This document shows positions 2 to 15,589 of a stretch of DNA of 15,589 nt, in pieces. How positions within the stretch are numbered: position 1 is the stretch's first letter; every line of letters starts with the position of its first letter. Location: the UHGV virus genome UHGV-0166683; one strand, written 5' to 3'. A program made the translations under genes and the position numbers. Source of the stretch: a virus. The notes under the pieces were generated by a model. The model had not been told where the DNA came from. It searched no databases and was given only the letters and a program-made list of their open reading frames with translations.

Positions 2-895
2 ACTTCTAAGAATGAAAGCATCGAAAAAATCCATATTTTCTTTATGTGGAAAGATATCCTTTCATTAATTTCTGATCATCATAACAGTGACTGCTCTGTC
101 TTATTTTTCACCAATGAAGACAAAAGTTATACAGTCGAACTCACGCATTTTTTACAATATAGCGAGATTAATCGCTTATCGAACTCGTCTCTTAAATATG
201 AAATTATAAAGGAGCTTCTCGACACAATAAAAATCAATGATTTACACAAAAGCGAGCGCAAGCTCGTTATACGCTCAGCCATAAACGAAGTATTTAAAGC
301 AAATGGTACGTTCAATTTCTTTGACTTGCTTAACTCTACTGAACTCGTCAGGAAAAAATATGATGAACTATATGAGATTTACACAAAGAGGTTTTCTGTA
401 AATAAAATTCTTAACGAACTCGATGAGAAAAATCTTGAGTTCACGAGTAAAATTAACGAATTCATATCATCTAATCAGACAAAAGCATTGACTATTCCCG
501 GTGCATTAATAGCAGCTGGTGGCTTAGTGAAGGCTAATGAAACAACCGAAGCAATATTGATTATCGCAGGACTTTGGATGATAAAAAAAGTCAATTACAT
601 TTCTATTGAGATATTCAATGAAACATTCGACAACTTACGTTCTCGAGTGGAGTCCGCTTTCGATAAGTATTTAAAGTTTGAAGAAAATAAAGAAATCAAA
701 GATAATGCAGATAGTATTAAGAGTAGCATTACAGGTTTGATTGATAAAGCTAAAAAAAGGATGAGAACTGTTAAATATCTCGCATCAGCCATGTTTTATG
801 GAGGCCTTATTTACGTTGGATATAAACAGTTCCCAGTCTTTTTTGAAAAATCGGCAGTAAATCTATTTTATTTTTTATGCCATACTATAAGCTAA
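2..895 (+). CDS. AT-rich hypothetical protein with predicted transmembrane segments, probably 5'-truncated by the window
   Basis: The frame of ORF 44..895 has no in-frame stop back to position 2, and there is no SD before the ATG at 44. Hydrophobic stretches are ALTIPGALIAAGGLV, AILIIAGLWMI and YLASAMFYGGLIYVGY. Composition differs strongly from the prophage genes. The ORF converges on Q and overlaps its 3' end by 21 nt. Confidence 0.5.
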   Translation, partial: TSKNESIEKIHIFFMWKDILSLISDHHNSDCSVLFFTNEDKSYTVELTHFLQYSEINRLSNSSLKYEIIKELLDTIKINDLHKSERKLVIRSAINEVFKANGTFNFFDLLNSTELVRKKYDELYEIYTKRFSVNKILNELDEKNLEFTSKINEFISSNQTKALTIPGALIAAGGLVKANETTEAILIIAGLWMIKKVNYISIEIFNETFDNLRSRVESAFDKYLKFEENKEIKDNADSIKSSITGLIDKAKKRMRTVKYLASAMFYGGLIYVGYKQFPVFFEKSAVNLFYFLCHTIS

Positions 896-1231
896 CATTG
901 CTAAACAGCCATCAACAAACCCCATTGCAGTTTGCAGTTCCTTCCTAATTGTGCCATCAGAGCATTTTCTCTTCTTCGCAATAGTGCGTAATGAGATACC
1001 GATAACAAAGTGGGCGATGATGAGCTCATATTCCTCTGGTTTATACCTTCTCAACCGAGCCACACAACTGTCTATCATGATGCCTTCGTCATCATCACAC
1101 TGAATCCGTGACTTTTTGCCATGAGGTAAAAGTCCCTTGAAACCAGCCGCTATCGGCTGCCAGTCCACTCCGCTATTGTCTGAAGCAGCCCAAGCTCCCC
1201 AACGATCCATTACTTCATACATATCACGCAT
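875..1231 (-). CDS. Phage antitermination protein Q (lambdoid Q family)
   Basis: The DRWGAWAA..GVDW motif and the size (118 aa) fit this family, and the gene sits distal to the nin-type genes. The ATG at 1231 is preceded by GGAGAAAGTTG. The track start at 1246 is a TTG with no SD. Confidence 0.8.
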   Translation of the reverse strand: MRDMYEVMDRWGAWAASDNSGVDWQPIAAGFKGLLPHGKKSRIQCDDDEGIMIDSCVARLRRYKPEEYELIIAHFVIGISLRTIAKKRKCSDGTIRKELQTAMGFVDGCLAMLAYSMA

Positions 1232-1248
1232 CAACTTTCTCCACAAAA

Positions 1249-7935: not shown

Positions 7936-8244
7936 ATGAATGAGCAGGATTTGAAGCATGTGATCGCATTGTTGCTGGAAGACGCTAAACGTTTGCAGCA
8001 GATAGAGCCAAATGCAGGCACTGAGGCCCGTATTTTGTTAGCAAAACAGGCATTAAAGACTTGCGAGGCGCAAGACCCTGATCGAACCAAGTTCATGAAT
8101 TTCATGGCTAACACGATCACCCCACTGCCATGCAATGGAGAGAGGGTGAGCCGTGTTTATCACGACACAATGGTTAAGGCATTAAGAATCGAGCTTGATG
8201 GGCTTAGGCGTAAGATCGTGATGAACAAAATCGTTGCCAACTAA
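7936..8244 (+). CDS. Hypothetical 102-aa protein, first gene of the early-left transcript
   Basis: A GGAGAG SD lies 5-6 nt before the ATG. The sequence looks helical. There is no arginine-rich N-terminal motif, so it is not an N-type antiterminator. Confidence 0.6.
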   Translation: MNEQDLKHVIALLLEDAKRLQQIEPNAGTEARILLAKQALKTCEAQDPDRTKFMNFMANTITPLPCNGERVSRVYHDTMVKALRIELDGLRRKIVMNKIVAN

Positions 8245-8523
8245 GGAAGCAGACGGAAGTAAGCATGCGCTTTGTTCAAATTTGCAGACAAATATATTTG
8301 CGTCAACACCAGCACTGTTAGCAATGGAAAAAGTTTGATCAAGGATTTGTTGGCAGTTCATTGTGCTTTTGAGGATATATCCCTCTGGAATCAGTCTGCA
8401 GCAGCTATCGTCAGACTCTTTGATTGTTTTCTGGTACAGAAAGTTAAGCATTAATTCTTCAAATTTTTTGGTCTGTTCGGCTGTTGCTTCAAACAGACGA
8501 ACGTGAACATAAAACTGGTTCAT
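8182..8523 (-). CDS. Hypothetical 113-aa protein, opposite in orientation to the surrounding operon
   Basis: The ATG at 8523 is preceded by AAGGAAA. The N-terminus is MNQFYVHVRLFEATAEQTKKFEELM. The gene is lower in GC than its neighbours, and its 3' end overlaps the 7936..8244 gene by 63 nt. Confidence 0.5.
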   Translation of the reverse strand: MNQFYVHVRLFEATAEQTKKFEELMLNFLYQKTIKESDDSCCRLIPEGYILKSTMNCQQILDQTFSIANSAGVDANIFVCKFEQSACLLPSASLVGNDFVHHDLTPKPIKLDS

Positions 8524-8666
8524 TAGGTTTCCTTGCTGGCTGTGTGAGAACTCCAGCATACCACCGAGCCTGAAGTGGTGAAAAGACAGGCAATAGTTTC
8601 ATTGCTGTGTGTAGTCCTGGCGGTACCAGTTTGTACCCTTGCTTCCGGCTGGTACCGCTCTTTTTA

Positions 8667-8753
8667 CAAAACAGAGAAGAGCATCACCGGACGACGGGCT
8701 CATAACCCAATCCATCCGGGCGGCTGCCACCGCAGGTGTTCTTCTCTGTTTTG
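8667..8753 (+). repeat. Long inverted repeat (17-bp arms, 16/17 complementary, 53-nt spacer) in the leader of the yfdP-like gene
   Basis: CAAAACAGAGAAGAGCA (8667-8683) pairs with TGTTCTTCTCTGTTTTG (8737-8753). The single mismatch would be a G-U pair in RNA. Confidence 0.6.
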
Positions 8754-8802
8754 TGGAGAAACCAACCGACCTTGCAGGGTCGATATGATGAGGAGCAGCA
8801 AA

Positions 8803-9165
8803 ATGGCTAGCGAACGCGGTACTGATGTGCAGGCATTTATCGGGGAGCTGGACGGCGGCGTATTTGAAACCAAAATCGGCGCAGTTCTCAGTGAAGTCGC
8901 TTCCGGTGTGATGAACACGAAAACCAAAGGTAAGGTCTCACTCAACCTGGAAATCGAACCATTTGATGAGAACCGTGTGAAAATCAAACACAAACTCTCA
9001 TATGTTCGCCCGACTAACCGCGGGAAAATTTCCGAAGAAGACACCACCGAAACGCCGATGTATGTCAATCGCGGTGGGCGCCTGACTATTCTGCAGGAAG
9101 ACCAGGGACAATTACTGACTCTTGCCGGTGAGCCTGACGGAAAACTCCGCGCAGCAGGTCATTAA
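8803..9165 (+). CDS. yfdP: YfdP-like prophage protein (120 aa)
   Basis: The ATG at 8803 follows a GAGGAG SD. The size, and the position directly upstream of yfdQ/yfdR homologues, match K-12 CPS-53 gene order as I recall it. The GTG-initiated 76-codon extension in the track is rejected. Confidence 0.65.
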   Translation: MASERGTDVQAFIGELDGGVFETKIGAVLSEVASGVMNTKTKGKVSLNLEIEPFDENRVKIKHKLSYVRPTNRGKISEEDTTETPMYVNRGGRLTILQEDQGQLLTLAGEPDGKLRAAGH

Positions 9166-9230
9166 TATCGTTCTTAATTAACTGATTATTTACCTCATCA
9201 CTGAATATCTTTATATAGTGAGGACTTATT

Positions 9231-10055
9231 ATGTCTCAGAACTTAGACGCAACCGCAATTAATCAAATCCATGCCCTTATTTCTGCTCAGGGTGTTAATG
9301 AAATTATCAGTAAGATTGGTGCCGACGCAGTGGCATTACCTGAAAATTTCCGCATTCATGATCTGGAAAAATTTAATTTAAATCGCTTCCGTTTCCGTGG
9401 CGCGCTTTCCACTGCCTGCATCGATGACTTTACCCGTTATTCTAAAGATCTTGCAGATGAAGGCACCCGCTGCTTTATCGATGCCGATAATATGCGTGCC
9501 GTCAGTGTTCTTAACCTGGGTACTATTGATGAACCAGGTCACGCAGATAATACCGCCACTCTCAAACTGAAAAAGACAGCACCGTTCTCTGCACTGTTGT
9601 CTGTTAACGGCGAGCGTAACTCCCAGAAGTCACTGGCAGAATGGATTGAAGACTGGGCCGACTACCTTGTGGGCTTTGATGCTAATGGTGACGCCATTCA
9701 GGCAACCAAAGCGGCTGCGGCGATCCGTAAAATCACAATTGAAGCGAACCTGACTGCTGATTTTGAAGACAATGACTTCAGCGGCAAACGCTCCCTGATG
9801 GAGTCTGTCGAAGCGAAGACCAAAGACATTATGCCAGTGGCATTTGAATTTAAATGCGTTCCGTTTGAAGGCCTGAAAGAACGTCCGTTTAAATTACGCC
9901 TCAGCATTATCACTGGCGATCGTCCTGTACTGGTACTACGCATTATTCAGCTGGAAGCAGTGCAGGAGGAAATGGCTAACGAATTTCGTGATCTGCTTGT
10001 TGATAAATTCAAAGACAGCAAAGTAGAAACCTTTATTGGTACTTTCACCGCCTGA
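9231..10055 (+). CDS. yfdQ: YfdQ-like DUF2303 family protein (274 aa)
   Basis: The length and the start [21 protein letters not shown] match my recollection of E. coli K-12 YfdQ. A GTGAGGA SD precedes it. Confidence 0.8.
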
Positions 10056-10089: not shown

Positions 10090-10183
10090 ATGGAAACGTA
10101 ATTGACTCAATAATCGCCTGATGGCGAGGGTTTTCTTTAACCAAAATTCAGCGCGGTGCAGCGCATATAACGTGGAGAACAAA

Positions 10184-10720
10184 ATGTCATTTATTAAAAC
10201 TTTTTCCGGGAAGCATTTTTATTATGACAAGATAAATAAAGACGACATCGTTATTAACGATATCGCGGTTTCCCTTTCAAATATCTGCCGCTTTGCAGGA
10301 CACCTTTCACACTTCTATAGCGTCGCCCAACATGCGGTGCTTTGCAGCATGCTGGTACCGCAGGAATTTGCTTTTGAAGCATTAATGCATGATGCAACAG
10401 AAGCGTATTGCCAGGACATTCCCGCACCACTGAAACGCCTTCTTCCTGACTATAAACGGATGGAAGAAAAAATAGACGCCGTAATCCGTGAGAAATACGG
10501 GTTACCTCAGGCTATGAGCACGCCCGTGAAATATGCCGATCTCATCATGCTGGCAACCGAACGCCGCGATCTCGGGCTTGATGATGGCTCTTTCTGGCCA
10601 GTATTGGAAGGTATCCCGGCAACAGAGATGTTCGAAGTTGTTCCTCTGGCTCCTGGCCATGCCTACGAGATATTTATGGAACGTTTTAAAGAGCTGCATA
10701 AGATACATAAGCAATCCTGA
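10184..10720 (+). CDS. yfdR: YfdR-like HD-domain 5'-deoxynucleotidase (178 aa)
   Basis: The ATG at 10184 follows a GGAGAA SD. MSFIKTFSGKHFYYDKINKDDIVINDIAVSLSNICRFAGH and the HD motif ALMHDATEAY match K-12 YfdR. Confidence 0.85.
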   Translation: MSFIKTFSGKHFYYDKINKDDIVINDIAVSLSNICRFAGHLSHFYSVAQHAVLCSMLVPQEFAFEALMHDATEAYCQDIPAPLKRLLPDYKRMEEKIDAVIREKYGLPQAMSTPVKYADLIMLATERRDLGLDDGSFWPVLEGIPATEMFEVVPLAPGHAYEIFMERFKELHKIHKQS

Positions 10721-10775: not shown

Positions 10776-11021
10776 ATGCTTCAAATGCTGACACTTGAGG
10801 AATGGGCTGCGGAAAAATTTAGGAGTAATCCTCCAAGTGTGTCCACATTGCGTCGTTATGCTAAGCAGAATTTATTTTGTCCACCAGCAATGAAACAAGG
10901 TCGACTCTGGCGAGTACGTGAGGACGCAGAGTTAGTTGGGGAATTAGTTACTCCAGTAATCAAGAAAAGTGATTCTATTATTCTGCAAAGGATTTTAAGC
11001 AATGGCAGCCAGACCACGTAA
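10776..11021 (+). CDS. xis: Excisionase (lambda Xis family)
   Basis: MLTLEEWAAEKFRSNPPSVSTLRRYAKQNLFCPPAMKQGRLW parallels lambda Xis (YLTLQEWNARQRRPRSLETVRRWVRECRIFPPPVKDGREY). It overlaps the int start by 20 nt, as in lambda. The start could be 10761, 10776 or 10785; 10776 has the best spacing from GAGG. Confidence 0.8.
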   Translation: MLQMLTLEEWAAEKFRSNPPSVSTLRRYAKQNLFCPPAMKQGRLWRVREDAELVGELVTPVIKKSDSIILQRILSNGSQTT

Positions 11022-12129
11022 AAATAATGTTTCAGTACCTAACTTGTATCCGCTTTATAGTAGAAAAGTAAATAAAGTCTATTGGCGATATAAGCATCCA
11101 GTGACCGGGAAATTTCATTCGTTGGGCACAAATGAAGCTGAAGCTATTGCTATTGCCACTGAAGCTAACACTCGTCTGGCTGAGCAAAGAACCCGGCAGA
11201 TTCTAGCTATCAGTGATAGGATCGCAACCAGCAAAGGAAAAGCGATCACAACGTCAACCTGGTTAGATCGCTATCAAGCGATCCAGGATGACAGGCTCAA
11301 AAGTGGTGATATAAGACTCAACACCTATAAGCAAAAAGCTAAACCAGTATCCTTGCTCAGAGAACGAGCAGGAATGAAGTTGATCTCATCCGTTGATGTT
11401 AGAGATATAGCACAATTGCTTGATGAGTATATTGCAGCTGGACAGCCTAGAATGGCCCAAGTCGTTAGGTCTGTATTGATCGATGTGTTTAAGGAAGCAC
11501 AGCATTATGGCGAAGTTCCGCCAGGGTATAACCCTGCTCTTGCGACGAAGCAACCCAAAAGAAAAATTACCCGTCAACGCCTCAGCCTGGAAGAATGGCA
11601 AAAAATATTCGATATAGCAGACGCCAGTCATCGTTACATGGGAAATGCCATGCTCCTAGCTTTGGTCACTGGGCAGCGTTTGGGAGATATATCCAAAATG
11701 AAATTTAGTGATATTTGGGAAGATCATCTTCACGTCATTCAGGAAAAGACTGGAAGCAAAATCGCTATCCCTCTTTCTCTTCGCCTCAATGCGATTAACT
11801 GGAGTTTACGCGATGTAATAGCCCGCTGCCGTGACTATGCAGTCAGCCCATACCTAGTGCATTTTTTCCGTTCAACTTCACAAGCAGAACGTGGGGCACA
11901 GGTTAAATCCAATACATTGACGATGAACTTTAGTAAAGCGAGAGATTTAGCAGGAATTGACTGGGGTGATGGCTCACCCGCAACATTCCATGAACAAAGA
12001 TCGTTATCTGAACGCCTGTACAAGGAGCAAGGGATAGATACCAGAAAGCTACTTGGGCATAAAACACAACAACAAACCGATCGTTACCATGATGACCGAG
12101 GGAAAGGTTGGAGCAAAGTAGCTTTGTGA
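11002..12129 (+). CDS. int: Lambda-family tyrosine integrase
   Basis: Catalytic motifs are VTGQRLGD (Arg), FHEQRSLSERLY (His-x-x-Arg), LLGHK and DRYHDDRG (Tyr). These are collinear with lambda Int. Confidence 0.92.
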   Translation: MAARPRKNNVSVPNLYPLYSRKVNKVYWRYKHPVTGKFHSLGTNEAEAIAIATEANTRLAEQRTRQILAISDRIATSKGKAITTSTWLDRYQAIQDDRLKSGDIRLNTYKQKAKPVSLLRERAGMKLISSVDVRDIAQLLDEYIAAGQPRMAQVVRSVLIDVFKEAQHYGEVPPGYNPALATKQPKRKITRQRLSLEEWQKIFDIADASHRYMGNAMLLALVTGQRLGDISKMKFSDIWEDHLHVIQEKTGSKIAIPLSLRLNAINWSLRDVIARCRDYAVSPYLVHFFRSTSQAERGAQVKSNTLTMNFSKARDLAGIDWGDGSPATFHEQRSLSERLYKEQGIDTRKLLGHKTQQQTDRYHDDRGKGWSKVAL

Positions 12130-12340: not shown

Positions 12341-13456
12341 TTAAATTAAATCAAATAGCCCATGTTCATCTATAGCCTTTGAACTAATTAAGTTCGCGGC
12401 TTCTATGTCATTGTCACTTGCCTCAGAAATAAGGAAAAATGAATCAACATGATTTTGCAAAATAATTTCCTTATACTTCTTGAGCCATTGTAATTTACCT
12501 GTAGTGAACAATACTTTACGCGGTAGCAAAATACGGCTAAAAACTGATGGAAGATACTCACTTCTATTAAATGGAATAAAAGGGTCGCCTAAAGAAAGAA
12601 TAGTTAGACGATTAAATTCACCGTGCGAATTCAATTTTTCAGCTGATTTGGCTATACCACTTGGTAAAAAAACACCTGTCTTGATACCGTTGCGTAAAGC
12701 AACAACAGCCATCATTTTATCAAAGGCAGTACCTCCAAATAATAAGGAATATCCTTTTTTAACAGAAAGATCAATAGTATCAAGAACAACTTGTTTTTCT
12801 ATATCACTTGGTGACGTGCTCGAAATTATCGAAAGATCAAAATCAGTAAATAACTGCCCAGTATAATAAAGATTTTTGCCGGTGAAAGTTGACAACTTTA
12901 AAGGAAACATTTTATCATCATGCTTAATTTCAGATACATTAAGATCTGTTAAGGATGGATAGTTAAAGTTTGGTGAGGCTTTTCCGTGTTTATTATTTTT
13001 TGATGCCTGCGGACTAAAAACTAGAATTTCATTTTTATTATTACACAGGTAATCCTGTATCATTTTTTTTACAATATCCCAATCAAGACCACCGTGACCA
13101 CAACCTAAAGCTGGCAGGGTGATTGTTTTTCCATGTTTATTATCCAAATATTTCGAGAGCCAATGCAGTCCTTTTTCGATATATTCGTACTTAGACTTAT
13201 TTCTCCAATGATCCTTGGTGGGAAAGTTTATGATTTCTATTTCCTTACCATACGTATCATTACCTTTCCAAACAGCTGGTCTTCCTGGAGATATTTCTCC
13301 TTTTTTACACAGCAATACGTATTCATTATACATTTCAGGAAACTTATTCTTAAAAGCAAAAGCAACCCCTGCCCCCATTACACCAACACAATTAACTGTA
13401 TTAATTCTAATGTCAGCAGCATAATCGAAAAAATCACCATCAACATATCTAATCAT
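12341..13456 (-). CDS. darG: DarG-like macrodomain protein fused to a C-terminal DprA-like (DNA-processing A / SLOG-type Rossmann) domain, 371 aa
   Basis: Macro motifs are NTVNCVGVMGAGVAFAFK, INFPTKDHWRNKS and LPALGCGHGGLDW. The C-terminal half parallels the DprA core: GKNLYYTG..LSIISSTSPS, LLFGGTAFDKMMAVVALRNGIKTGVFLPSGI and ILSLGDPFIPFNRSEYLPSVFSRILL. The start is set at the ATG at 13456, preceded by a perfect AGGAGG; the 42-codon upstream extension has no SD. Confidence 0.8.
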   Translation of the reverse strand: MIRYVDGDFFDYAADIRINTVNCVGVMGAGVAFAFKNKFPEMYNEYVLLCKKGEISPGRPAVWKGNDTYGKEIEIINFPTKDHWRNKSKYEYIEKGLHWLSKYLDNKHGKTITLPALGCGHGGLDWDIVKKMIQDYLCNNKNEILVFSPQASKNNKHGKASPNFNYPSLTDLNVSEIKHDDKMFPLKLSTFTGKNLYYTGQLFTDFDLSIISSTSPSDIEKQVVLDTIDLSVKKGYSLLFGGTAFDKMMAVVALRNGIKTGVFLPSGIAKSAEKLNSHGEFNRLTILSLGDPFIPFNRSEYLPSVFSRILLPRKVLFTTGKLQWLKKYKEIILQNHVDSFFLISEASDNDIEAANLISSKAIDEHGLFDLI

Positions 13457-13926
13457 AAAACCTCCTTTGGTCAGAGTATACATCCTTATTTCTGGCTCTT
13501 CAATTCTATTGTCAAAAACTTTTACAAAGTCTGCATCAGTAAAACTGATGGCGCATTTTAAAATTAAAATCAATATGTCCATATCAAACGTTATATTTGT
13601 TATTTTTTGTATTTATTATTCATATCCATCATGTGCTATTAAATCGCCCAAAAGAACATAATAAATTATGTGCACCACTTTCTTCTTATTGAATTTTGGA
13701 TTACATTACGATCTAAATTAGATCTTTTGCCAATATCATAAACATATGCAGCAAACGTTGCAACAAGCTGTTCTCATTCTAACAGTTAGTAGAATATAAA
13801 CTCTGTAATTAGCACACTGAATTCCCTTCATCTATGAGTTACAACATCCTTTAAGTGAATAGTATTGTTAGTTTAAATCTATTAATATCATTCATAAAAC
13901 TATTTTATATAGTTAAAGTCATTATA

Positions 13927-13954
13927 AATCCATCTGAATATATACAGATGGATT
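13927..13954. repeat. Perfect 10-bp inverted repeat (AATCCATCTG / CAGATGGATT, 8-nt loop) in the AT-rich spacer
   Basis: Read directly from the sequence. On the minus strand it is followed immediately by TATAAT (13921-13926, complement). It could be a terminator for the DarT-HD gene or an operator. Confidence 0.5.
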
Positions 13955-14163
13955 CTGCCAATAGTCTTTGCAGGTGAAGTGCATGTTATATATTTTTTAG
14001 GGAATATATTTTCTAATTATTTCTCAGATAAAAATTTGCAGAACGAAATTACTTTACATAATACCGAATGTTACAGATTATTTTATTGCATATAAGCATT
14101 GAACTAACCACTATCACAGTGACTATGTTAATCATAAAATCTGCATCAAATTCAAAAAGCTCC

Positions 14164-15510
14164 TCATAAACTGTTCCCCTGCAATCTTTGGAGAACTTCA
14201 TCCCGGAGATCATCGATCCCGTCAGAAACCTGAGCTAACCAAACTTGACTTAATGAGCCAATATCAGCCTTACTTAGGGCTACTAACATATTGATATCTT
14301 CAGAAGATGTAACTATATCGAACAACTGATTTTTATTCCTCCCTTTAGCTACTATTTCCCCCAATAAATCATCATACGTAACTAACATCATTATTTTTCT
14401 AACTAGATCGGTTTGTATGACTGGCAGATCTTCTGTCAAAATTCGTTGTAGCATCGCAAGTGACTTCCTAGGATGCTCTCCATCTGCCTCATGCATGTAA
14501 TTATTATTCCAACGTGTTTTAGGCCCTTTGCCTATATCATGCAAATAAGCGGCCAACTCCAAAACTTCCTGATGAATAGAGTCTAATTGATAAAACTCTG
14601 GTGAATTAACTACAAGACTAGCCACTCGTCGACTATGAGAGCCAACATCTTCATTATGAGGCCCGTAGCTCGTCCCCAATCCATCGATATCTTCAAGCTC
14701 TTGGATGGAGGAGAAATTACCACGAATTGCACTTAGAGCATCACTAATACTTTGAAATTTTGGCCTCGTTTCTCGTTGAAATGAAGTTACATATTCAATA
14801 GCTTCATCAAAAAGCATTTTTAACACTACCGGTCCCGTGACTAAGGATGAGGACCAGTTTCCAGGTTGATAATAATAATGTTGAAAATCACCCTCAACAA
14901 TATTTGGTGGAACAATACCTTTGTTCTGGAAAATACTCCTCACAATATCAGACATAGAACGATTCCATGTAATTATCTGATTTATTTCGCTTAAAGAGAC
15001 ATGATCTGGCAGCAAAAGTTCTGCCATCTTTTTATGCCTCTGAGTCTCGTCAGCATAACCCCATGCATTATTATCTATGGTAGCCCAATCTAATACATCA
15101 AGCTGGTCAGCTTGAGTATTACCAGAATAAAAGTTCGGTGGATTAACTGTATTTGCGGAAGCATCTGTAAAATATGACCCATTCCTTGTTTCGAGTGATA
15201 ATATAGAAACTGAAAGATAGATAATAAATTGCTGATCTACATTTTTTTTATGAAGAACAGACAATTGCATGGGCGTTTTTTTTGCAAAATAAAAAGGAAC
15301 ATAATCATGAACACAACGACCATTCGTATTAGGCACCTGCATCACTGCCCTACGCCCCTGTATTCCTTCATCAGCAACATTCACATGTGATATACGACGT
15401 GCAATTTTCTGATTAGTCGAAAACAGCCCAGTTTCAATTATTGATTCAAGATTATCTACTGACGTAAAGTGATATGCATTTCGGTGTCTATGGTGAACAG
15501 GAACTGTCAT
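14164..15510 (-). CDS. darT: DarT-like (DUF4433) DNA ADP-ribosyltransferase domain fused to a C-terminal HD phosphohydrolase domain, 448 aa
   Basis: DarT motifs occur in the canonical order: AYHFTSVDNLESIIETGL, RCVHDYVPFYFAKKTPM, SYFTDASAN, LDVLDWATI and KKMAELLL (E164 at the catalytic Glu position). HD motifs are HSRRVA (H292), AAYLHDIGK (H324 D325), EHPRKS (H346) and TYDDLLG. Confidence 0.85.
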   Translation of the reverse strand: MTVPVHHRHRNAYHFTSVDNLESIIETGLFSTNQKIARRISHVNVADEGIQGRRAVMQVPNTNGRCVHDYVPFYFAKKTPMQLSVLHKKNVDQQFIIYLSVSILSLETRNGSYFTDASANTVNPPNFYSGNTQADQLDVLDWATIDNNAWGYADETQRHKKMAELLLPDHVSLSEINQIITWNRSMSDIVRSIFQNKGIVPPNIVEGDFQHYYYQPGNWSSSLVTGPVVLKMLFDEAIEYVTSFQRETRPKFQSISDALSAIRGNFSSIQELEDIDGLGTSYGPHNEDVGSHSRRVASLVVNSPEFYQLDSIHQEVLELAAYLHDIGKGPKTRWNNNYMHEADGEHPRKSLAMLQRILTEDLPVIQTDLVRKIMMLVTYDDLLGEIVAKGRNKNQLFDIVTSSEDINMLVALSKADIGSLSQVWLAQVSDGIDDLRDEVLQRLQGNSL

Positions 15511-15513
15511 GTA

Positions 15514-15589
15514 CTGATGAATCCCCTAATGATTTTGGTAAAAATCATTAAGTTAAGGTGGATACACATCTTGTCATATGATCAAATGG
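15514..15589 (+). mobile_element. IS10: IS10 (Tn10-type) outside end, truncated by the window edge
   Basis: CTGATGAATCCCCTAATGATTTTGGTAAAAATCATTAAGTTAAGGTGGATACACATCTTGTCATATGATCAAATGG is the well-known IS10 outside terminus. The transposase ATG would lie about 30 nt beyond the window. Confidence 0.9.

Follow-up and report, generated by a model that had tools for sequence, protein, structure and literature searches.

DarTG toxin-antitoxin systems serve as a model both of DNA ADP-ribosylation that can be reversed and of immunity by way of toxin-antitoxin pairs, and a two-gene module at positions 12341 to 15510 of the UHGV virus genome UHGV-0166683 raises the question of what such a system is when both of its partners carry extra domains. 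Published DarTG systems comprise DarTG1, with a NADAR antitoxin, and DarTG2, with an antitoxin that joins a macrodomain to a DarT-binding domain; the macrodomain of DarG reverses thymidine ADP-ribosylation (PMC11543638). A preliminary description of the stretch analyzed (15,589 nt, here referred to as the window) had proposed an undescribed DarTG variant, or a new system built from DarTG parts, in which a DarT extended by an HD domain is paired with a macrodomain followed by a DprA-like domain. No HD-fused DarT or macro-DprA antitoxin is described in the literature that we searched, which did not extend to LeRoux et al. 2022, and the paper on the DarTG2 system of enteropathogenic Escherichia coli (EPEC) makes no mention of an HD domain on DarT. 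Here, we assign the module as a new DarTG2 variant, without the canonical DarG C-terminal domain and with an additional domain on DarT. It is likely a prophage-borne toxin-antitoxin, or abortive-infection, defence of the DarTG2 class with a distinct and widespread architecture. We base this reading on computed domain identities, catalytic conservation, gene linkage, chimeric origin, and constraint, from which we infer the substrate, toxicity, defence function, and roles of the HD and DprA-like domains.

Architecture of the toxin and antitoxin

Both genes are on the minus strand and, as first described, AT rich, with a GC content of 28 to 38% compared with approximately 43 to 56% in the adjacent prophage. 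The toxin gene, darT-HD (14164 to 15510), was delimited from the open reading frame (ORF) list and Pfam matches to DarT and HD and encodes 448 amino acids (aa) plus a stop. For the antitoxin gene, the mechanical ORF spans 12341 to 13582 (413 aa), and we place the likely true start at the ATG at 13456, giving 371 aa plus a stop (12341 to 13456). This start is almost certain because it is preceded by an AGGAGG site and because all homologues begin at the matching residue, with the sequence MI/LxFV. The RefSeq and mechanical starts (13573 and 13582; 410 to 413 aa; also at 8212-9444 of locus L001) are thus about 40 codons too long and run into a relic of a darT-HD gene, considered below.

The N-terminal half of the toxin (aa 13 to 213; 14872 to 15474, minus strand) is a DarT ADP-ribosyltransferase domain (Pfam DarT, E value of 5e-40; PADLOC DarT model, 1.4e-42) with key residues H14, R53/R54, Y74, and catalytic E164. 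It therefore has the DUF4433/PF14487 transferase domain by which DarTG2 toxins are recognized, including the catalytic Glu and the Arg that activates NAD/thymine. The remainder (aa ∼225 to 448; 14167 to 14838, minus strand) is an HDIG-type HD phosphohydrolase domain (Pfam HD, 2.8e-6, aa 290 to 361), with the H...HD...D metal motif and all-helical fold of such enzymes; its predicted metal ligands are H285, H324-D325, H346, D380, D381, and D416. The proposed DarT signature, KKMAELLL, with its catalytic Glu and the HD dyad are invariant in relatives: across 80 DarT-HD sequences, E164, H324, D325, K328, H346, and D416 were found in all 80, and R54, Y74, H285, and D381 were found in 79. Position 380, an Asp here, is a His in most relatives, and one or the other occurs in 79 to 80 of the 80. 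The conserved residues of the HD half (H285, H324-D325-x-G-K328, H346, H/D380, D381, and D416) probably form a two-metal site, and, judged from these residues, the domain is probably catalytically intact.

AlphaFold models of both proteins, each built on 35 to 36 homologues, confidently show two domains, as the preliminary description had anticipated. The toxin model (pLDDT, 88; pTM, 0.82) places its domains in a fixed mutual arrangement, given the high pTM. Full-length homologues of 442 to 459 aa occur in many genera, and full-length homologues of each of the two proteins number in the hundreds. When the HD half was compared with 1.84 billion cluster representatives, only 102 matches were obtained; because nearly all of them are DarT-HD proteins or fragments, a few with additional N-terminal leucine-rich or Sel1 repeats, this HD clade is essentially dedicated to DarT. 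A kinship with the HD domain of Cas3 was considered and set aside, as the similarity was not significant (E values of 0.003 to 0.03).

The antitoxin begins with a DarG/TARG1-type macrodomain (aa 1 to 150; 13007 to 13456, minus strand), identified by Pfam Macro (3e-17) and by DarG models of PADLOC (5e-58, profile positions 1 to 160 of 329) and NCBIfam (1.4e-66, positions 1 to 162 of 338). Its key residues are N22, K81, and the loop G118-x-G-x-G122. N22, K81, and the loop glycines (G118, G120, and G122) are conserved in 53 of 53 antitoxins from many phyla, and the FPTK motif that contains K81, noted in the preliminary description, is invariant in relatives. The antitoxin thus has the N-terminal macrodomain, with catalytic Lys and Asn (N22), of a DarTG2 antitoxin; the catalytic Lys is K80 in Thermus aquaticus DarG.

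The DarG matches end near profile position 160, and a DprA/ShosA-like Rossmann domain of the SLOG superfamily (aa 166 to 371; 12344 to 12961, minus strand) stands in place of the DarT-binding domain, as had been claimed. In the AlphaFold model (pLDDT, 84; pTM, 0.56), a disordered linker (aa 152 to 165) joins two well-folded domains, the second with a DprA-like Rossmann fold, and 15 of 36 relatives match the Pfam DprA family PF02481 (DNA_processg_A; best E value, 1.1e-6). The alternative that this region is a diverged canonical DarG C-terminal domain was rejected: an hhalign comparison gave a probability of 0.06%, and the DarG models that stop at ∼160 here cover a canonical control along its full length. 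That control, DarG of Vibrio cholerae, scored 486 bits and spanned positions 1 to 337 of 338 in the NCBIfam profile; it was taken, with its DarT, from PMC11481870.

The two genes belong together well beyond this window. When a single genome from each species was scanned with two exact peptide patterns, at least 132 DarT-HD genes (a lower bound) were recovered, from Gamma- and Alphaproteobacteria, Desulfobacterota, Bacteroidota, Bacillota, Planctomycetota, Chloroflexota, and one archaeal metagenome-assembled genome. Among the 79 species-level loci that were retained for counts of linkage, a same-strand macro gene lies immediately 3′ of DarT-HD in 73, and in 52 of these 73 the macro protein has the DprA-like domain; 8 of the 52 proteins exceed 600 aa, and some exceed 1300 aa. 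Approached from the other side, viral-contig loci retrieved by the DprA-like domain carry DarT-HD in every case in which upstream sequence was present. The canonical DarG C-terminal-domain hidden Markov model (HMM) matched, among the surveyed loci, only DarG proteins of Bacteroidales. The architecture is a conserved and widespread family and not a one-off, and the survey of co-occurrence that had been proposed as a check thus came out in favor of the pairing. The core of the preliminary reading, a DarTG-type pair with these added domains, is supported by profile HMMs, predicted structures, and strong conservation of neighborhood; toxicity of the one protein and neutralization by the other would be expected.

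Compared with canonical DarTG2 systems (those of T. aquaticus, Mycobacterium tuberculosis, EPEC E2348/69, and the V. cholerae PDE system, in which a 213-aa DarT is paired with a 345-aa DarG [PMC11481870]), the toxin here is twice as long through a C-terminal HD domain that canonical DarT lacks, and the antitoxin has a DprA-like Rossmann domain where canonical DarG has its DarT-binding domain. The pair resembles DarTG1 (DarT1-NADAR) in combining a DarT-family toxin with an enzymatic ADP-ribose eraser. With ShosTA it shares only the DprA-like fold (ShosA, PDB 8ZVA), at a sequence similarity undetectable by profile; ShosA has an N-terminal SAM domain whereas the antitoxin here has a macrodomain, and ShosT is a phosphoribosyltransferase/pyrophosphatase whereas the toxin here is a DarT-HD ADP-ribosyltransferase. 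A third system tested in the V. cholerae study, “DarTG VchC” (WP_025795243.1 and WP_057552482.1), shares only 13% and 24% identity with the canonical pair and was reported to be toxic and not to be neutralized by AdfB (PMC11481870, Table S2); it might be of the DarT-HD class. The core chemistry of the pair is very probably known DarTG chemistry.

Hybrid origin and the 707-bp spacer

The preliminary description had treated a spacing of about 700 bp as part of the architecture. The gap is real (707 bp, 13457 to 14163), but it does not belong to the design of the system, because the toxin and antitoxin genes of relatives overlap or lie at most 81 bp apart (50 of 52 loci; median distance, 2 bp) and because the spacer consists of two relics. 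Relatives thus fit the DarTG2 operon order, with the toxin gene first and the antitoxin gene overlapping or adjacent, from which the window differs by its spacer.

The relic next to the toxin gene (13928 to 14171, minus strand), which overlaps the end of darT-HD, corresponds to the N terminus (∼aa 7 to 96) of a macro antitoxin. It was found by tblastn with the macro proteins of three loci (L012, L015, and L010), includes the stretches ELFEFDADFMINIVTV and FTCKDYWQNPSVY, and is broken by a stop and a frameshift. The other relic (13457 to 13890, minus strand), found by blastn and tblastn and contiguous with the macro gene, corresponds to the HD half (∼aa 278 to 438) of a second DarT-HD. A blastn alignment to a locus in a P2-type prophage of E. 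coli (L002) extends from the macro gene as far as 13668 at 83% identity and covers 13890-13711 at 71%; tblastn of two further toxins (L091 and L093) against the spacer revealed in-frame stops and the stretch AAYVYDIGK.

The intact genes have different closest relatives. The window toxin is 71 to 77% identical to toxins of one lineage, here referred to as lineage A (Vibrio salilacus, Nitrosomonas, Aeromonas, and Xanthomonas), whose antitoxins are 44 to 47% identical to the one in the window. The window antitoxin is 74 to 85% identical to those of a second lineage, B (the P2-type E. coli locus L002 and IMG/VR loci L091-L093), whose toxins are 39 to 42% identical to the window toxin. The relic antitoxin is of lineage A and the relic toxin is of lineage B. 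The locus is therefore a hybrid of two systems, with toxin A joined to antitoxin B, a point that, like the IS10 end described below, is absent from the preliminary description. The spacer retains pieces of the lost partners, antitoxin A and toxin B, which shows that a deletion between two tandem modules created the pair; in the simplest history, module A would have been followed by module B, and the deletion would have run from inside antitoxin A to inside toxin B.

The same hybrid is carried by Citrobacter sp. Cu233, in which both genes are 95% identical to those of the window at the nucleotide level. Between the two copies, the ratio of nonsynonymous to synonymous substitution rates (dN/dS) has values of 0.25 (toxin) and 0.16 (antitoxin), whereas the spacer is 85% identical, with indels, and has diverged at approximately the synonymous rate (dS, 0.13 to 0.16). 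Low dN/dS in both genes, next to a spacer that drifts neutrally, indicates that the hybrid pair is held by purifying selection. Antitoxin B would therefore neutralize a toxin that shares only about 40% identity with the one it originally accompanied; such action across lineages fits enzymatic neutralization that does not depend on a cognate partner.

The spacer was also scanned for a noncoding RNA or a new gene, and this possibility was rejected, as nothing was found other than a fragment of the IS10 RNA-OUT and the two relics explain the sequence. Promoter-like and terminator-like sites in the spacer are no more common than in shuffled sequence. No terminator-like site was found on its minus strand, so cotranscription of toxin and antitoxin is possible.

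Prophage setting and variant loci

The module had been placed just outside the prophage; instead, it occupies a cargo slot inside an e14-like element. An intE-like integrase (11002 to 12129, plus strand), identified from its translation and from the RefSeq annotation of an identical locus, flanks it on one side, and the RefSeq gene order there is yfdP-yfdQ-yfdR-xisE-intE-macro-darT-icd. The interval between intE and icd is the cargo slot of icd-integrated e14-like elements, and in e14 of E. coli K-12 it carries lit, ymfE, and ymfD. Given this position and the K-12 lit slot, the module is prophage cargo. Of 5426 complete E. coli genomes, 7 carry the identical locus, without IS10; identical copies of the module are present in IMG/VR contigs, and the toxin protein occurs on ∼815 contigs. 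In a P2-like prophage, a relative of the module occupies a tail-gene hotspot, where it is flanked by the genes for tail-fibre assembly and the tail sheath. Toxin and antitoxin each match their own PHROG family of unknown function. Among the isolated phage genomes of INPHARED, DarT-HD was not found, and the sole match was a short DarT in a Thermus phage.

Two further genes of the window deserve mention. An ORF at 44-895 (plus strand; 283 aa; 32 to 35% GC), beside the antiterminator Q gene (875-1246, minus strand), has no Pfam match but matches phrog_5023 (1e-115), a family without an assigned function, and is possibly a further cargo (moron) gene of the prophage. At 10121-10720 (plus strand), beside xis and int, lies a separate YfdR/YfbR-like HD-domain 5′-deoxynucleotidase with no relation to the HD half of the toxin.

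Several loci of the wider family have unusual arrangements. In seven Bacteroidales loci (L029, L034, L044, L053, L064, L079, and L086), DarT-HD is followed by a short DarT (206 to 218 aa) and a canonical DarG, with no DprA-like partner. Eight loci (L027, L028, L033, L038, L039, L050, L060, and L069) have macro proteins of ∼1230 to >1330 aa 3′ of DarT-HD; most of these proteins match the DprA-like domain and then continue for ∼900 more residues, and most of the eight reach the end of the fetched locus and may therefore be longer. In Rhizobium, Agrobacterium, and Neorhizobium (L068, L071, L072, and L076), macro ORFs of ∼491 to 511 aa have C-terminal parts that match neither the DprA-like domain nor that of canonical DarG. 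Finally, in four proteins (P0264, 932 aa; P0323, 597 aa; P0307; and P0309), DarT-HD is preceded by leucine-rich repeats, Sel1 repeats, or other N-terminal extensions. Leucine-rich and Sel1 repeats are typical of sensors, which suggests that DarT-HD may be used as the effector cassette of immune sensors built as one protein.

Mechanism and competing readings

On the DarTG2-type reading, the DarT domain would most likely ADP-ribosylate thymidine in single-stranded DNA (ssDNA), using NAD+, and this modification would stall the replication of phage and host. The HD domain, packed rigidly on DarT, may follow in cis with a metal-dependent hydrolysis of its own on the substrate of DarT, whether it processes the ADP-ribose adduct or cuts or degrades nucleic acid or nucleotides. 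The macrodomain would remove ADP-ribose, so that neutralization, by homology, would be enzymatic and type IV-like. ShosA neutralizes its toxin through ssDNA binding and RecA/recombination factors, without binding to the toxin (PMC11961720, PMC12961424). By analogy with DprA and ShosA, the second domain of the antitoxin could direct the macrodomain to ssDNA, perhaps with recruitment of RecA-type repair; docking onto the toxin is an additional or alternative possibility.

A number of observations weigh against this reading. Both proteins, unlike canonical ones, fall under the equivalog cutoffs of NCBIfam: the toxin scores 135.4 bits with toxin_DarT (cutoff, 150; canonical V. cholerae DarT, 236.9) and the antitoxin scores 225 bits with DarG (cutoff, 250). 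Since these curated models miss the proteins, the class is under-annotated; the PADLOC DarT and DarG models match, and tools for finding defence systems would therefore probably label the pair as DarTG. The canonical DarT-binding C-terminal domain is missing from the antitoxin by both DarG profile span and hhalign, and the mode of neutralization may therefore differ. The profile searches proposed in the preliminary description recovered DarT, HD, and Macro in the window proteins and PF02481 in relatives, but PF02481 gave no match to the window antitoxin itself. A profile of the C-terminal domain searched against PDB sequences found no DprA and only spurious matches to CFTR, so the link to DprA is weak at the level of sequence. 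The DprA assignment rests, for these reasons, on relatives and predicted fold. From a reading of its motifs, moreover, the GxARGID motif of DprA appears to be replaced. Coupling of the HD and DprA-like domains is also loose: among the 79 loci, 14 have a macro protein whose C-terminal region matches neither profile, 7, all in Bacteroidales, pair DarT-HD with a short DarT and canonical DarG, and 6 have no macro gene.

The state of the module in this genome is a further point on the same side. Only 3 bp separate the darT-HD ATG from the outside end of an upstream IS10 element (15514 to 15589), which is context and does not belong to the system; the match to the seven E. coli copies stops at 15513, beyond which thousands of insertion sequence copies match. 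The native upstream context GGGGGAtacATG, present in strain 181.1 (L001), is replaced, and with it the native promoter and Shine-Dalgarno sequence of the toxin gene are removed, which makes expression here uncertain. Elsewhere, IS50R interrupts the toxin gene of E. coli MDR_56 (L008, 3535-6424), and in the P2-like prophage of E. coli S1-SRB-02-B (L002, 7116-8449) the gene is frameshifted and split into two ORFs. Together, the IS10, IS50R, and split copies suggest recurrent inactivation or modulation of the toxin. An Rfam match to an RNA-OUT fragment (15559-15589, minus strand; E value, 7.6e-4) confirms the IS10 end and shares its strand with darT-HD; a GGGGA located 11 nt before the ATG also comes from IS10. 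The IS10 promoter pOUT reads outward, and transcription from it would enter darT-HD, so that expression of the gene is altered but not necessarily lost.

These facts lend themselves to a reading in which the module is silenced or decaying here, the toxin cut off from its promoter and ribosome-binding site and the antitoxin a noncognate leftover, with the pair idle or the macro protein alone active. The position of the IS10 end against the start codon, the two pseudogene relics in the spacer, and the disrupted and split toxins, which hint at recurrent selection against an active toxin, would all be expected. We nevertheless consider it unlikely, as both ORFs are intact with every catalytic residue kept, dN/dS has stayed at 0.16 to 0.25 since the split from the Citrobacter copy of the chimera while the spacer evolved neutrally, the IS10-free hybrid is identical in the seven complete E. 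coli genomes and the toxin is on the ∼815 contigs, and the same-strand RNA-OUT, GGGGA, and outward pOUT may still express the gene. Rather improbable, in our view, is that HD is the main toxic effector (a Cas3-HD-like ssDNA nuclease, a SAMHD1-like dNTPase, or an NAD/nucleotide pyrophosphatase), with DarT mainly providing ssDNA targeting or a priming modification and the DprA-like domain acting as the key neutralizer by protecting or repairing ssDNA. Similarities to Cas3 and dNTPases are nonsignificant or generic to the HD fold, and the Bacteroidales loci have DarT-HD without a DprA-like partner; in addition, the invariance of the DarT catalytic residues and of the macrodomain residues for erasure shows that selection clearly acts on ADP-ribosylation and on its reversal.

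We give still less weight to a scheme in which DarT marks ssDNA and HD then cleaves the ADP-ribose pyrophosphate, yielding AMP and phosphoribosyl-thymidine, or otherwise converts the adduct, leaving a lesion that resists phage erasers. Such a lesion would lie beyond the orphan macrodomain and NADAR erasers of phages and would amount to a counter-counter-defence; with erasure alone insufficient, the host would depend on the DprA-like domain to shield or repair its ssDNA. A parallel exists in the SidE-family effectors of Legionella, in which a mono-ADP-ribosyltransferase (mART) and a phosphodiesterase (PDE) share one polypeptide. Least probable of all, we judge, is that the pair is primarily a regulator of replication or DNA metabolism, or an addiction module that stabilizes the prophage, and not an anti-phage system. 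Reversible DNA ADP-ribosylation controls growth in M. tuberculosis, where DarTG has this role (PMC12170906), and some copies are chromosomal without obvious mobile context, such as that of V. cholerae (L003) between housekeeping genes. Against this stand the patchy, horizontally moving distribution (few complete E. coli genomes carry the locus), the location on IMG/VR contigs and at sites of e14-like and P2-like prophages that are known to hold defence or moron genes, and the versions with leucine-rich and Sel1 sensor-type repeats.

Read as a DarTG2-class module, the locus gives the toxin a second, strictly conserved catalytic center, and the role of HD could bring to light a new type of reaction on ADP-ribosylated DNA or a new means of rendering the lesion irreversible. 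In the antitoxin, the fusion of macro and DprA-like domains would tie erasure of the lesion to targeting or repair of ssDNA and so provide a mechanistic bridge between DarTG and ShosTA. The hybrid locus is a natural experiment on cross-neutralization by antitoxins; were HD to process the mark laid down by DarT, it would show that neutralization needs no cognate protein-protein fit.

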